Source: a virus (lineage: Duplodnaviria; Caudoviricetes). From it: DNA of 51,831 bases. The stretch is taken from positions 1-51,831 of IMG/VR virus record IMGVR_UViG_3300012200_000007; one strand, given 5' to 3'. The position numbers and the translations under genes are program-made. Under the pieces are notes generated by a model. It saw only the letters and a program-made list of their open reading frames with translations, did not search any database and was not told where the DNA came from. Below are positions 3,555 through 51,831 of this stretch, in pieces; the first letter of the stretch is position 1, and each line of letters starts with the position of its first letter.

Positions 3555-3974
3555 TCATTTCAGAATCGTTCTTTGTTTCGGCCCGACCATGATTGCCAGT
3601 GGTGTGGGCAGCTTTTCGACAAGCGGCCTCCACAAATGCAAACAGCCTTGGTGAAAATTCACGTATTCAGATTTTGCTGGATGGAACTGGCAAACCCAGT
3701 CCTCCGGTTCCCAAAACAAATCTTTGATGTAGCACATGATCGTCCAGCGCGGCGGGTGTTTGTCGTATTCGATTGAGACGCTAACATGTTGCCATTTCCA
3801 TTCCGGTCCTTCCGCATCGGTGCCGTCCGAAGCGATACAACGAATAATTTTTCCTTCGTGCGGGATGCGAAACAAACCATTGAATCCGTAGCTGTCATCC
3901 GACAAATACATTTCCGGCACAGTCGGCAGGATAACCCGGCAACGATGTTTATTTAGAAATTTCCAATCGCTCAT
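3555..3974 (-). CDS. conserved phage hypothetical protein
   Basis: WQHVSVS...PRWxxMCxIKDLFW...QFHPAKSEYVNFHxxCLHLWRP, a widespread phage family signature. Confidence 0.75.
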   Translation of the reverse strand: MSDWKFLNKHRCRVILPTVPEMYLSDDSYGFNGLFRIPHEGKIIRCIASDGTDAEGPEWKWQHVSVSIEYDKHPPRWTIMCYIKDLFWEPEDWVCQFHPAKSEYVNFHQGCLHLWRPLVEKLPTPLAIMVGPKQRTILK

Positions 3975-4001
3975 CGCATCCGCTCCGGTAACGGCTCAAG
4001 T

Positions 4002-17216: not shown

Positions 17217-17657
17217 TCAAACCTCGCGCGGCAACAGTGGCAACCCAAGTTTATTCACCACTCGCCGAACGAACTCCGTTGAGAAATCTGTCGGCTTAGT
17301 TATCATGGAAAATACCATAAGAGCATTCGCCTTCCGGCTGAAATCATTCAGGCACACCGACCCTGACATGATGACGACGTGAGCGATTTTTACCGGCTTG
17401 CCTTTAGCTTCCGTTTCAATCTCGACCTCTCTCAGCGCCTCTAAAACTTCCATGCCACCGAGTGAATTTCCTTCCAGGTTCATGTCGATAAAAATCAAAT
17501 CGTAGAAAATAGCGCGCACTTTCTGAAGCGCCATCTGGACGGTCTCGGCAATATCGATCACGAATTTCGTTTGGCCGTCGAATGCCCGATGGAACGTATC
17601 GGCGATGATTTTTTCGTCGTCCACGATAAGGATAAGCCGCTGTTCGGTAAAGGGCAT
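17217..17657 (-). CDS. single-domain response regulator receiver
   Basis: LIVDDE, DLIFIDMNL, IMSG, TKP. Confidence 0.85.
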   Translation of the reverse strand: MPFTEQRLILIVDDEKIIADTFHRAFDGQTKFVIDIAETVQMALQKVRAIFYDLIFIDMNLEGNSLGGMEVLEALREVEIETEAKGKPVKIAHVVIMSGSVCLNDFSRKANALMVFSMITKPTDFSTEFVRRVVNKLGLPLLPREV

Positions 17658-18106
17658 CAGTCGTTTGTCGGAAACCGGAAAGCGCGCAAAATTTCCGCCA
17701 CTGATCCGAGCGAGAACGGTTTCAGCAGAACGCTCACAAACCCGTATTGCAACGCCGGCAGAATTTTATCCGGAGCGCCGCTGACGATGATAATGCGCAT
17801 TCCGCGTCTTCGTTCTTTGATGAGCCGGACAATTTCGCAACCTTGACTATCAGGCAAGCCAATATCGATGAAAGCAATCTGAAACTTACGGTTGGTCATC
17901 GCGAGACATTCAAGCGCCCCGGCAAGATTCCCGGCCCAAGTCACCAGAACATCCTGAAAGCGGAGTTGTCCGCAAAGAAATTCCGCTTCTGCGGCGACAT
18001 CTTCGACCACTAACGCCTCTACTTTGATTGGATACAATTCCGCAGATTCATTCGGCGCCGGTTTCCAGAATTTCCTGATGAGATTCACGTCATTTTGGTT
18101 TATCAA
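17657..18106 (-). CDS. single-domain response regulator receiver
   Basis: LVVED, IAFIDIGLPD..G, IVSG, LKPF. Confidence 0.85.
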   Translation of the reverse strand: MINQNDVNLIRKFWKPAPNESAELYPIKVEALVVEDVAAEAEFLCGQLRFQDVLVTWAGNLAGALECLAMTNRKFQIAFIDIGLPDSQGCEIVRLIKERRRGMRIIIVSGAPDKILPALQYGFVSVLLKPFSLGSVAEILRAFRFPTND

Positions 18107-39775: not shown

Positions 39776-39805
39776 TTGACAAACCGGAGGCTTCAAAGGT
39801 AAAAA
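39776..39805 (+). promoter_or_regulatory. putative promoter of the RAMP-like island
   Basis: TTGACA-18-TAAAAA. Confidence 0.4.
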
Positions 39806-39905
39806 CGCGACATCGGTTCTACACCCGATGTCTTCACAACATAAATTTGGCACTCGTTTGCGGGTTGGGTTTGCTTCCCAGCTTTCCCGTGTAGAAATCA
39901 ACAAG

Positions 39906-40000
39906 CGGGTGCTTTGCGTCAAGGCGTGTCTCGGTCTGTCTTGCCGGGGTGGTCTATGGTGGGGCTTTGTTGGACTGGGTATGTCGGGGCGCGGTAAGGT
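39906..40000 (+). ncRNA. NN-GGY pentamer tract 0 (putative guide RNA), 19 units
   Basis: All 19 units end in a pyrimidine; 10 have an exact GGY triplet. Confidence 0.65.
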
Positions 40001-40004
40001 TCCC

Positions 40005-40640
40005 ATGTTAAAAACAAAAACAAATCGGCTCACTGAAATTTCTGGTGAGAGTCCAAGCAACGGCGCGGAAACATTCATAGAAATGCAAAGGCCATATCGG
40101 GTTCAAGTTGAACTCGAAGGTATGTGTCCGATGTTGTTTCACCGATGGAATAACGAAAGCGTGGCGGCAAAGGCACGCGCAAAGAAAGGCAGTGATGAGA
40201 AAAAAACTGACGATACGGAAGCGTTCATGTGGAAAGACGAAAGAGGTTTCGTTTGTATTCCAGGCGAATACGTTCGTCAGTCCATTATTCACGCCAGCAA
40301 ATACGAGCAAGACCCGCGTAGTCCAAGAAAGTCCATGATGGATTTGATGAAGGCTGCGCTCGTTTCGTTGACTGAACTGGCGAATCTCGGAGTCAAGCAA
40401 CCGGACTTTATTGACCAGCGGCGAGTCGTGATTCAACGGTCAGCAATCACGCGCTCTAGGCCAGCAATGCGGACTGGTTGGAAAGCGAAGTTTGTTTTGA
40501 TGGTTAATCTTCCAGAATACGTGCCGCCGCAGAAACTAAATCATCTCATTCAACAAGCGGGTCGGATAATCGGATTGGCGGATTTTCGACCATCGTTCGG
40601 AAGATTTTCAGTCGTAAAATTTGAAGTACTTGGCGATTGA
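40005..40640 (+). CDS. stand-alone Cas7/RAMP-like protein (VIPR-like effector candidate)
   Basis: VELEGMCPMLFH first strand, IPGEYVRQSI..A, D.RRVVI...R.RP...W...F, and C-terminal G-rich loop AGRIIGLADFRPSFGRF. Confidence 0.7.
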   Translation: MLKTKTNRLTEISGESPSNGAETFIEMQRPYRVQVELEGMCPMLFHRWNNESVAAKARAKKGSDEKKTDDTEAFMWKDERGFVCIPGEYVRQSIIHASKYEQDPRSPRKSMMDLMKAALVSLTELANLGVKQPDFIDQRRVVIQRSAITRSRPAMRTGWKAKFVLMVNLPEYVPPQKLNHLIQQAGRIIGLADFRPSFGRFSVVKFEVLGD

Positions 40641-40645
40641 TTTAC

Positions 40646-40947
40646 GGGGTCGGGCAGGTTTCGGTCATCTTAGGTGTGGTTGGCCAAACTCCGGTTGTGC
40701 CTGTTTCGGTTTGCTTTGGTCGTGTATGGTTTGTTCTTCGCTCTGGTTTTGTATGGACAGGTGCGCCGATGTAAGTTGAGTTGATGTGGGCTGAGTCCTG
40801 ATCCGGTCAGGCTGGGTTGAGCCTGCTTTGTAATGGACAGGCGAGCTATGGTTCGGGCCAGAAATGGCCGGTGATGTTTGGTAAGGCGAGCCACGTTCCG
40901 GTCAGCTTTGATTGGCCGGGGAGTGCTATGGTCAGGTGAGTTTTGGT
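40646..40947 (+). ncRNA. NN-GGY pentamer tracts 1-3 (putative guide array): 40646-40735, 40743-~40857, ~40863-40947
   Basis: 5-nt period with one register shift near 40736-40742; the variable dinucleotides decode to terL-like peptides. Confidence 0.7.
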
Positions 40948-42812
40948 GCCGGTGCGGGCGATGAGTCCGTGCCGGTTTTTTCTTCAACTAGGTCTTCACC
41001 TGCACCGGCCATCTCGAACCACAACGCCAGATATGCAGCGCACATATACAAATGATCCGCAGCTTTTTCCGATGCCTTTTTCCAACGCAGTTCAATTTGA
41101 TTCGTCGCCGGAACGCGATAAGATTCCAAACTCCACGGCAAAAAATGCGCTTTGAAATCTTCGGACACATCCGCGGGAACCTCATATGTTACATCCTTTC
41201 TAGCACGCAAATGAGCCAAGGCATCCATCGCGCCTGACTGGGAAAAATTCCAAAATTCCGGTTCCTCATTTGGATTTTCTTTGGTCGGTCCTTGCTGCCC
41301 AGGAGCTCGCGGCCAGAGTGGTTCCGGTTCCGACCATGCCCGTTTAACCCCATCCTCGTGAGTAAACAACCTTTCACCGCCCCCTTTAGCGCCATGAATT
41401 TTGATCGCATTGAAGCCGTGTTTGAGACAGAAAAAATAAACGTATCGGTCCTCGCCGAGCCATGAAGCGTCAACCGCAACGCAAATCGGTCGAACAGAAT
41501 GTCTCCGCAACACGTCCAACACTTCACCTTCTGATTCCATCTTTCCCTCCCACACTATCAGACAATTTCCAGATTGATCGCAATCTTGAATGATTCCCCA
41601 AAAATGACTTACTTCATTCAGTTCCTTTCGGCCCGTCTGATAATCCAAAACCGCCAGTCTCCATTTCCTGTCAGGCAATCCTTTACGGTCCTTTTTCCGG
41701 CCTGACAAAACAATCGGCGCCGATTCGGGAATGCGGTCATCGGTCCCGATGAACTGGCACTCGCGTTCCCGTAAATAATTCAACCATGGCAACGGATTAC
41801 CCATGCGGCGCGCGCGCAGCGCCACGTGTTTTTGCCGGATCAAATCCATCCACGAAATGTAATCCACGGATACCGATTCCAACGCGAAACTTTTCCAGCC
41901 GGCCTGCGCGCGTTTGTTCCGAGGTTCTCCGTATCGGCCCGACATAGAAAGTTTCCGGCGTTCGCGCACATCATCGTGAACCAGATAACCGCACGGCATT
42001 TGATAGCGGATCTGTATCTTTGAGTAATCCGGTTCATCGCCTTCTTTACGGTCCCCAAGCTCGTAGCGCAAACCTCCCAGGTGCGGATATTCCTTTTCCC
42101 AGCGCGTTCGCATCACGTGAAACTGCCGGCAACCCGGACACTGAACCTCCCAATGTTGCTGCGTGCCCGACATGAACGCCTGGTGCAATTGATCCCCTTT
42201 CCGGCCGGCGTTGCTGATGTTGAAAACGACGCTGTTCCAAAACGCGGTCGTGCGTCCATAGGCTTGTTCCAATCTTCCAGGAATCCAATTGTCGGCATCG
42301 TGCAGTTCCTCGTTCACCTGCCCGCGAATCGTATCACCCGTCACGCTCCGCTCGGTACTGATTCCCTGAACGATGAAATTAAGGTGCGGAAAAATAACCA
42401 ACCCGTTCGTCCACGCGAACCTGTCAGCCGATGTCCTGGCCATCACCGGAGCGCACGCCAGCAACTTTTTCTCGATGTGCTTTTTCCAGCGCGAATCGGC
42501 GTGCAGATCATTCGGCCAATTGTATTGCACGTCACCGCTCGACCAGTTCGCCAGCCAGAACAGAATCACAATTTCTCCGACCGAAGTTCCACCAGCCTGA
42601 ATCGGTTTGATGAACGTCATCCGCCGTGTCCCGTCGTTCCCGCACTCAATCGGCTCGCGCGTCCAAGGAGTTATGTTCGCGCGAAACTGTTCAGACCTTG
42701 CGGACCCGACCAGTTTAACGTTGGTTTCGGCCCAGTCCACGACCGAAGCCGGCGCGGACTTCGGCACGGCCTCGACCATCTGAGAGAACAGCCATTGCGA
42801 AGCGGCGCTCAC
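40932..42812 (-). CDS. terL: terminase large subunit (lambda GpA-like)
   Basis: DWAE..V.L, TPW.REP, KPIQAGGT, RTTAF, CPGC, nuclease-domain LDYQ...HFW, DHLYMC. Confidence 0.88.
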   Translation of the reverse strand: MSAASQWLFSQMVEAVPKSAPASVVDWAETNVKLVGSARSEQFRANITPWTREPIECGNDGTRRMTFIKPIQAGGTSVGEIVILFWLANWSSGDVQYNWPNDLHADSRWKKHIEKKLLACAPVMARTSADRFAWTNGLVIFPHLNFIVQGISTERSVTGDTIRGQVNEELHDADNWIPGRLEQAYGRTTAFWNSVVFNISNAGRKGDQLHQAFMSGTQQHWEVQCPGCRQFHVMRTRWEKEYPHLGGLRYELGDRKEGDEPDYSKIQIRYQMPCGYLVHDDVRERRKLSMSGRYGEPRNKRAQAGWKSFALESVSVDYISWMDLIRQKHVALRARRMGNPLPWLNYLRERECQFIGTDDRIPESAPIVLSGRKKDRKGLPDRKWRLAVLDYQTGRKELNEVSHFWGIIQDCDQSGNCLIVWEGKMESEGEVLDVLRRHSVRPICVAVDASWLGEDRYVYFFCLKHGFNAIKIHGAKGGGERLFTHEDGVKRAWSEPEPLWPRAPGQQGPTKENPNEEPEFWNFSQSGAMDALAHLRARKDVTYEVPADVSEDFKAHFLPWSLESYRVPATNQIELRWKKASEKAADHLYMCAAYLALWFEMAGAGEDLVEEKTGTDSSPAPAPKLT

Positions 42813-50587: not shown

Positions 50588-50909
50588 AAACTTGGCGTTC
50601 CATCATTGCGAACCAATCAAACTCGCGCACTCGGCCAATCTCCCAAATACCCGCTGCCAACGTAATCGATTTGTGTTCCTCATGTTGAACTGTTGCCTGT
50701 CTTGTGAGATTCAAAATCATCCGATCTCCAATGCGAATTAGTTCTGCATCGTCATCCTCGATAACGTGCGAGTGACCCGATTCGCCATGCGCCAGAACAA
50801 GTCTCTTGCGCCCTATAATTGTCACCGTTCCATCCGGCATTGATTGCAACCGACGACCGACCACGTCCCCTTGTTGGAAAGTTTTATTTGCTGTTTTGTT
50901 TTTCTTCAT
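50580..50909 (-). CDS. His-rich partner protein typically found beside DUF6745 genes
   Basis: QQGDV...LAHGESGHSH...HEEH..I.L..G.W....REFD. Confidence 0.7.
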   Translation of the reverse strand: MKKNKTANKTFQQGDVVGRRLQSMPDGTVTIIGRKRLVLAHGESGHSHVIEDDDAELIRIGDRMILNLTRQATVQHEEHKSITLAAGIWEIGRVREFDWFAMMERQVCD

Positions 50910-51831
50910 GTGAGTATTTCCGCATTTATTTGCCAGTTGTTATTTCGCCAGTTAAGAGCTTTTTCTACCGTGTCACATTCCGCGGGGATTCCTTCGAGAT
51001 GCCAGCAACCGACTGACGGATTCAACATTCTAAGATAACGCGCATCATTGACTTGTTCGGATAGCTTCACTTTAAGAACTTCGTAAGTTCCTCGTTTCTC
51101 TAAAACTTTGTGTTCCAGCTTGTCCAGCATCCGCTCAATACCGATCTTGCGCAGTAACTCCCGTCGCACATCGACATTAGTTTCTTGCAAGACAATCTCA
51201 GGCTTCAATTGTTCCGCTGGAGTCAATACGTAATCAGCCTTCATTCGGATTCCGTTCAGCGCATACACTCCCCATCCATCCGAATATTCAACCGATGGAG
51301 CGCCGTCCTTATGAAGCCTGCCAGCATTATTCCTATGAATCGAGATTGGTTTCTCTCCAATGAATGCAAGTTTCCAAAACAAAACACTCCAACCAGCCGA
51401 CAAACACAATGCTTCATTACCGTCCAATTTACTGGTGTCTTGATCCAGTTCCATTCGCATAAAATCGTAAAACGACAACCAATAAGCAATGAACTGTCCG
51501 AAATCGTAATACCAATAAACGGAAGCGCTCACGGAAGCGTGCACGGAAGCGCTCACGGAATCGCTCACGGAATCGCGCACGGAATCGCGCACGGAAGCGC
51601 TCACGGAAGCGCTCACGGAATCGCTCACGGAATCGCGCACGGAATCGCGCACGGAATCGCGCACGGAATCGCGCACGGAAGCGCTCACGGAATCGCTCAC
51701 GGAATCGCGCACGGAATCGCGCACGGAAGCGCGCACGGAATCGCGCACGGAAGCGTGCACGGAATCGCTCACGGAAGCGCTCACGGAATCGCTCACGGAA
51801 TCGCTCACGGAATCGCTCACGGAATCGCGCA
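50906..51831 (-). CDS. C-terminal part of the DUF6745-like protein with a tetrapeptide repeat
   Basis: GQF...WLSFYDF, GRLH.DG.P..EY.DGW..YALNG, E.N...RR, NPS...H.E.IP. Confidence 0.8.
   Translation of the reverse strand, partial: RDSVSDSVSDSVSDSVSASVSDSVHASVRDSVRASVRDSVRDSVSDSVSASVRDSVRDSVRDSVRDSVSDSVSASVSASVRDSVRDSVSDSVSASVHASVSASVYWYYDFGQFIAYWLSFYDFMRMELDQDTSKLDGNEALCLSAGWSVLFWKLAFIGEKPISIHRNNAGRLHKDGAPSVEYSDGWGVYALNGIRMKADYVLTPAEQLKPEIVLQETNVDVRRELLRKIGIERMLDKLEHKVLEKRGTYEVLKVKLSEQVNDARYLRMLNPSVGCWHLEGIPAECDTVEKALNWRNNNWQINAEILT
51521..51831. repeat. ~26 copies of a 12-nt unit encoding S-V-(S/R/H)-(D/A)
   Basis: Read directly from the sequence. Confidence 0.9.

Follow-up and report, generated by a model that had tools for sequence, protein, structure and literature searches.

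A probable stand-alone VIPR cassette in a phage genome, with guides that decode to terminase and helicase motifs of other phages

Results and Discussion

A plus-strand island in the phage genome analysed here is very probably a stand-alone VIPR cassette. In its pentameric repeats, the dinucleotides (NN) encode motifs found in terminases and helicases of other phages, and a Vipr-coated RNA made from it likely silences competitors. VIPR is a CRISPR-related RNA-guided silencer that was first described in 2026 (10.64898/2026.04.26.720920). The protein family, the phase of the repeats, decoded matches and a modular exchange of blocks between relatives were observed directly; the fold of the protein is a modelled one. 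A preliminary description of this DNA had pointed out a resemblance to VIPR, and homology to SUSP1 Vipr, the RAMP fold, the pentamer phase and targets read with a 1-nt skip all agree with it. The leader, hairpin, terminator and targets reported below go beyond what was recorded there.

The Vipr protein

The vipr gene (40005..40640, plus strand) is an intact open reading frame of 211 amino acids, as listed previously, and encodes a single-RRM RAMP protein. PDB entry 36PP, the Vipr protein of Escherichia phage SUSP1, was the only solved sequence matched (E 1.4e-7), and a profile of 69 sequences matched it with E 1e-10. Homologs number 2910 at E up to 0.001. Vipr matched 121 GenBank phage records (best 52% identity), vipr-like ORFs of Escherichia phages share about 27% identity with the island protein, and neither Pfam nor PADLOC provided a family match. 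A Cas7/RAMP-like protein had been proposed before, with structure prediction and Foldseek as a way of checking it. The predicted fold (pLDDT 87) found its best Foldseek and VIA-align matches among Cas7, Csm3 and Cmr proteins (Z 10-12, rmsd 3-4 Å, about 150 residues aligned) and is modelled as a RAMP fold with an RRM core, a thumb and a G-loop, which together with the homology to 36PP bears the proposal out.

In the SUSP1 structures, the residues contacting GGY and DNA have been mapped, and one protomer occupies each pentamer and grips its triplet (10.64898/2026.04.26.720927). The SUSP1 contact residues D177, R138, R179, E71 and K82 align to D193, R152, R195, E88 and K99 of the island protein, and the columns aligned to the GGY- and DNA-contact residues are invariant or nearly so among the homologs. 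At the position of SUSP1 W178, the island protein carries F194, likewise an aromatic residue. By analogy with SUSP1, one Vipr protomer may sit on each pentamer of the island and grip the triplet.

Genomic setting of the island

The window, i.e. the whole stretch of 51.8 kb that was analysed, is identical with the complete virus record. Among the 30 window proteins scanned against PHROGs, a lambda-type portal, a GpA-type terminase and a head protease are encoded on the minus strand, and the vipr island is located on the plus strand, flanked on one side by the terminase gene and on the other by three small ORFs that precede the portal gene. Gene calls and PHROGs matches thus agree with the earlier picture of a plus-strand island in a minus-strand region, which is one of head and packaging genes. 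The absence of CRISPR repeats and cas genes also stood up: of the 48 families of direct repeats in the window, the 20 largest include none resembling a CRISPR repeat, and Rfam gave no match anywhere in the window. For seven local proteins, PADLOC returned a weak HTH match and nothing else.

The entire island is present in two public runs, both of them soil metagenomes from which it may originate, and no RNA dataset containing it is among the public runs listed. No Vipr relative was found in GTDB genomes, and Atlas matches are of viral taxa only; the terminase has one match on a contig filed under Saccharibacteria. Vipr is absent from the 48 terminase loci compared, and the gene for the closest Vipr protein (91%) adjoins a different gene. 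Judged by these neighbourhoods, the island is accessory and mobile.

Some features elsewhere in the window deserve mention. An ORF at 50909-51820 contains a 12-nt tandem repeat encoding S-V-x-D/A that is found at both contig ends (1-88 and 51521-51831); the first 88 bases of the window recur exactly at 51521, which would fit a circularly permuted assembly. Just upstream of minus-strand start codons, a T-rich motif is dispersed through the window (1454, 4008, 6925, 8101, 14244, 45156 and 49409); its copies have the tail downstream of them in common (repeat families D3, D5 and D7), and it is possibly an early-gene leader or RBS module. Two adjacent ORFs at 17220-18106 have PHROG matches of unknown function; going by motif, we take them to resemble response-regulator receiver domains.

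Promoter and leader RNA

A probable promoter is situated at 39776..39805 on the plus strand, with TTGACA at 39776-39781 and a weak -10 element. The candidate promoter noted earlier is upheld insofar as TTGACA is present and TTGAC is conserved in relatives, where it lies 33-40 nt before the leader in 16/25 parsed loci, but a consensus scan gave no full site.

Directly behind the promoter, covariation and a fold z of -4.0 point to a pseudoknotted 5' leader RNA of 104 nt (39809..39912, plus strand). It is made up of helix P1 (39809-39832), an A-rich linker, P2 (39850-39860 with 39902-39912), P3 inside the latter and a 7-bp pseudoknot, in which loop 39817-39824 pairs with 39889-39896. Among 23 leader sequences, 87% of cells are paired, with 93.8% in the pseudoknot, and 6/7 pseudoknot pairs are changed on both sides. 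Covariation amounts to 0.59 versus 0.18 in shuffled and at most 0.14 in slid controls, for a structure derived from the same 23 sequences. A known RNA family or ribozyme was dismissed, as Rfam contained no match.

The leader model gave 30 strong sites in 95 sources, every one immediately ahead of vipr and the majority in training rows or duplicates, and no match in 75 non-vipr loci. On 50 whole records out of 65 considered, it returned 15 strong matches at vipr and two weaker ones elsewhere. These two feature a complementary pseudoknot, TTGAC boxes upstream and no pentamers, and precede an HNH endonuclease gene (L203:186-285) and a DNA methyltransferase gene (L204, minus strand, ~252-452). Two copies ahead of unrelated genes rule out a VIPR-specific leader and point at a general phage 5' module, probably with a stabilising or translation-setting role. 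The G-rich P2 strand of both copies lies about 10 nt before the start codon. In two other loci, L087 (~3860-3975) and L105 (~3880-3975), a different leader with two crossing helices was seen by eye ahead of vipr, and the upstream tract is lacking there.

Pentamer tracts and array architecture

Upstream of vipr, the phased GGY test and unit parsing define a tract of 17 pentamers (39916..40000, plus strand). The 19 units given for it in the preliminary description can be counted from 39906, but the first two belong to the 3' strand of the leader, which leaves 17 of the guide type. Its final unit probably also serves as the ribosome-binding site of vipr. Downstream, 60 in-register units were counted at 40646-40947, in line with the previous figure of about 59; two of them are taken up by a hairpin. 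A single 2-nt register shift occurs at 40736-40737, and arrays of relatives contain several 1-nt insertions. Of the genome-wide check for a period of five nucleotides that had been suggested, one half succeeded: autocorrelation at lags 5 and 10 peaks at the downstream array (z 6.1 at 40626-41025; best window elsewhere z 3.5) but missed the short upstream tract, which does not rank with the top 40 windows of 150 nt. The phased test caught it, with 9/17 consecutive units being GGY at the locus, a count that does not exceed 6 in any of 101,096 windows elsewhere.

Altogether, 75 units are of the guide type, 17 upstream and 18, 24 and 16 in downstream blocks A, B and C. Their triplets are more degenerate than strict GGY, as already remarked: GGY is found in 32 (43%), the first G in 64, the second G in 44 and the final pyrimidine in 70, resulting in a consensus close to G-N-Y in which the first-position G and the last-position pyrimidine are what stays. 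Degeneracy is similar throughout the clade (53% GGY in 1485 units).

Neighbourhoods of homologs had been proposed as a place to look for similar tracts, and homologs indeed carry them. Loci L136 and L141 have vipr genes without a pentamer tract in the parsed flanks, the leader being kept in L136. In L002, L015 and L018, only a few units of the upstream tract are left, and these lie over the ribosome-binding site, an arrangement that suggests translational autoregulation by Vipr.

In 19 cases, NN runs of at least eight units recur between arrays. Where such strings recur in distant loci, 43/157 triplets agree (three near-copy pairs left out), which is close to the ~18% calculated from the unit composition of the clade. 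NN strings are thus retained while triplet letters appear to carry little information, and on this comparison the triplets are a scaffold.

We parsed 82 other distinct loci, and in a quick tree restricted to the loci gathered here, the window falls into a group of 24 rows with an SH-aLRT of 99. As far as its sequences go, this clade is vap-less and has long arrays punctuated by tetraloop hairpins. The hairpin of the island (40856..40869, plus strand; 5-bp stem, GAAA loop) sits in the conserved flanks of the clade. Among arrays of at least 30 units, a hairpin is present in 20/22 of those with a leader versus 5/35 others. Flanks are fixed in the clade hairpins, base changes in the stems of 4-7 bp compensate each other, and most loops are GNRA or UUCG; the arrays contain 41 such hairpins, where shuffling of the units produced 0.4 on average. 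A hairpin resembling an intrinsic terminator, followed by a T run (40948..40982, plus strand; 12-bp stem, z -5.2), ends the array, and its hairpin part (40948-40976) overlaps the 3' end of the terminase gene on the other strand. A strong hairpin has this position in ~21/27 clade loci. The terminator and the three guide units before it lie opposite the final codons of the terminase gene (window positions 40932-40987). No partner gene was found, the plus strand from promoter to terminator holding vipr alone here and in the clade loci inspected.

In contigs from three other runs, the sequence is the same over the end of vipr and block A but goes on with different in-register pentamers from 40737, and two contigs of other runs share the leader and differ from 39916 on, all of them at low depth. 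Shared ends with abrupt divergence, together with the recurring NN runs, argue for blocks that are exchangeable modules.

Decoded targets

Decoding followed the published 1-nt-skip rule, i.e. NN dinucleotides were read as two bases per codon with the wobble position skipped. Blocks C and B decode, yielding three guide segments (C, B1 and B2), and the skip falls at the wobble position in all of their matches. These matches substantiate the earlier idea that the dinucleotides carry the target information.

Guide C (40873..40947, plus strand, 15 units) reads D/E-L-N-E-T-P-H-F-W-G-V-I-Q-D-F and decodes to the same terminase motif as in close relatives. Compared with 28 terminase homologs, it agrees in residue class at 15/15 positions with P0124, at 14 with P0123 and at 13 with P0122, and 60 shuffles of the guide reached at most 9 of 15. 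Among the DNA sequences of 48 terminase loci, L032 comes closest with 25/30 bases (83%), P0124 being known as protein only. A seed scan of viral contigs with guide C gave nine matches from one family (21-23/32) that did not extend and were judged to be chance.

Block B holds two overlapping guides. Guide B1 (40738..40802, plus strand; 13 units, block B units 1-13) reads S-L-L-I-Q-A-E-N-D-E-G-D-L and decodes to an AAA_25 primase-helicase motif. Its 10-unit seed is exact in 27 viral contigs, 8/27 reach 25/26 bases, and the AAA_25 domain is present in 3/3 tested ORFs matched by B1. Guide B2 (40788..40852, plus strand; 13 units, block B units 11-23) overlaps B1 by three units, reads G-E-L-P-H-W-W-L-L-I-Q-D-I and decodes to a GpA-type terminase motif at the site that is also that of guide C, here in more distant phages. 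Residue classes agree at 11/13 positions (at most 7 in shuffles), and the best DNA matches, 23/26 bases (88%), are those of L031 and L036, i.e. two of the 48 terminase loci; a B2 seed scan of viral contigs gave none. Neither C nor B2 has a perfect target at the DNA level. A single terminase guide in block B was rejected, as units 1-10 miss invariant residues of the terminase and fit the helicase. Read in this way, block B is a chimera in which a helicase guide runs into a terminase guide via three units that fit both. Past these units, helicase matches drop to 4-7 of 22. The shared units belonged to the helicase seed, so the helicase fit there is given by construction; yet they are the natural continuation of the motif.

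Units 2-11 of the upstream tract are exact in five related viral contigs, antisense and wobble-aligned to a small unnamed phage ORF to which no family was assigned and which lacks a homolog in the window. The match to those five contigs does not continue into units 12-17, so that 10/17 units are covered, and since one chance family is expected for such a seed, this ORF is a candidate target only. Block A (40646..40737, plus strand; 18 units and a stranded dinucleotide) has no target in the terminase loci or the seed scan of viral contigs. The scan hit two contigs of a single family, in which stop codons interrupt either reading and which were judged to be chance, and the 7/11 reached antisense against the terminase is also reached by shuffles.

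A control with 888 twelve-unit windows from 30 clade loci (cut-off at least 21/24) resulted in 36 matches at skip 1, many of them homologous sites of few guides, but in a single one each at skip 0, at skip 2 and with shuffled blocks. Three guides in the clade decode to vipr genes of other phages, namely in a downstream block of L011 (22/24), the upstream tract of L021 (23/26) and a downstream block of L093 (25/28), a kind of target also known from phages of the SUSP1 family.

Mode of action and alternative readings

Leader, tract, vipr and array would be part of one transcript from promoter to terminator, and Vipr would polymerise on the pentamers of the guide RNA. As in SUSP1, the dinucleotides may then pair with double-stranded DNA, with every third base skipped, and transcription of terminase and helicase genes of rivals would be blocked without cutting. 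Targets would be co-infecting or resident kin, and skipping the wobble position on conserved motifs would enable one guide to cover many rivals. GGY substitutions are among the changes that abolish silencing by SUSP1 (10.64898/2026.04.26.720920); with GGY in less than half of the units, the island Vipr must tolerate more, or some units are dead. The lack of a vap gene counts against silencing, as SUSP1 needs vap1 against its satellite (10.64898/2026.10.15.759431).

The phage's own guide C site in the terminase gene (41580..41624, minus strand) matches at 23/30 bases (77%). It is the best guide C match in the window, at skip 1 only, and 0/100 shuffles are as good; candidate self-targets at skips 0, 2 and 3 did not rise above shuffles. 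A cassette that is partly self-regulating is therefore conceivable: guide C would damp the late-operon terminase, on which the island transcript converges, and Vipr bound to the upstream tract would cover its own ribosome-binding site, over which the tract ends and which it still covers in the three loci where it is too short for a guide. We nevertheless consider this improbable. The own site stays below 80%, the cut-off for natural targets (10.64898/2026.04.26.720920), three terminase homologs fit guide C better, and B1 (17/26) and B2 (16/26) do not match the phage itself either. Under the preferred reading of silenced competitors, the carrier would escape guide C by the 7/30 read bases at which its own terminase differs. 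Even less credit is due to a decaying VIPR relic with a microsatellite-like tract. Degenerate triplets, the register shift, the missing vap and one block without target would fit it, but the reading frame is intact, contact residues are invariant, decoded matches are near-perfect, leader, hairpin and terminator are conserved and the degeneracy is alike across the clade, all of which makes a relic highly implausible.

How guides mature is a separate matter, compatible with silencing of competitors in either case. We lean towards guides that are cut out as hairpin-capped blocks. The small hairpins and the terminator would cap the 3' ends of guide blocks and replace the pseudoknot tail of type II, and a block would hold one to three guides of ~12-16 units each, joined by recombination. 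Covarying stems and stable tetraloops argue for such a role, and so do guide C, which exactly fills the stretch from hairpin to terminator, and B2, which ends at the hairpin. Variable distances between hairpins (10 to 55 units), the overlap of B1 and B2 without any boundary and the two leader-bearing arrays devoid of a hairpin would rather be expected if the long array stayed unprocessed, with hairpins as neutral spacers or recombination scars and one filament presenting several guides; we regard this as a serious possibility, if not the favoured one. More tentatively still, the island may represent an undescribed VIPR subtype, in which the array resembles a primitive pre-crRNA, tetraloop hairpins are repeats for processing or capping, and existing guides recombine at short stretches common to both to yield new ones, as in block B.

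Relation to known systems

Judged by every feature that sequence can test, the island is a member of VIPR and not one of type II. With the type II systems of Escherichia phage SUSP1 and a Pseudomonas fulva prophage, it shares a single-RRM RAMP protein with thumb and G-loop, a vipr gene preceded by one tract and followed by an array, the GGY/NN phase with a 1-nt skip at the wobble position, and targets in rival elements and other vipr genes without a self match at 80%. In contrast to type II, it lacks vap1 and the 40-nt 3' pseudoknot tail after each tract of 9-16 units; its array is continuous, with 60 units interrupted only by the 14-nt hairpin and the terminator, and the 5' pseudoknot leader, F194 in place of W178 and the 43% GGY set it further apart.

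The stand-alone vipr gene, degenerate repeats and the tail-less continuous array, all three published features (10.64898/2026.04.26.720920), are shared with types I and III-VII as far as the text describes these. Relaxed repeats (NNNGG, YNNNG, NNNNG) are given there for types I and III-VII (10.64898/2026.04.26.720920; 10.64898/2026.10.21.760802). The 1-nt skip, wobble alignment and targeting of rival elements and other vipr genes have likewise been reported (10.64898/2026.04.26.720920), so the literature already covers VIPR as such, degenerate triplets and the targeting of rival phages in wobble alignment. Types are defined in figures and data files, which lie outside the text searched, and the clade of the island may therefore be one of the published types I-VII.

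Unlike hammerhead-interspersed VIPR arrays, the island does not contain a hammerhead: none is among four Rfam matches at E up to 10, and a hammerhead core pattern matched only inside vipr genes, in 3/31 loci. Staggered arrays have vrRNAs overlapping by 1 nt, according to a figure legend; the island has one 2-nt shift, and its relatives have the 1-nt insertions mentioned above. The fold resembles the Cas7/Csm3/Cmr backbone of class 1 CRISPR systems, but the island has neither a CRISPR array nor a cas operon and uses a gapped 5-nt code instead of contiguous pairing with 6-nt periodicity. In the text portions of the VIPR papers that were searched, figures and data files aside, neither arrays punctuated by tetraloops nor a 5' leader, terminase targets or overlapping chimeric guides are mentioned, and no mechanism of guide acquisition is given. 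A literature search found no further VIPR papers.

Implications

Through the island, the VIPR code now also covers a vap-less clade whose triplets are loose. Concrete targets can be named as well: they are motifs conserved in the packaging and replication genes of kin phages, whereas the copy of the carrier itself would lie just beyond the guide's range. The leader represents a separate, uncatalogued phage RNA fold. A compact tool would result from a single-protein system that tolerates degenerate triplets and combines several guides on one transcript. Both the fused guide and the breakpoints that relatives have in common are informative on how guides are acquired. The best lead of this analysis is the fused guide of block B; recombination, if it is indeed at work, would be a testable route by which VIPR gains guides without Cas1.
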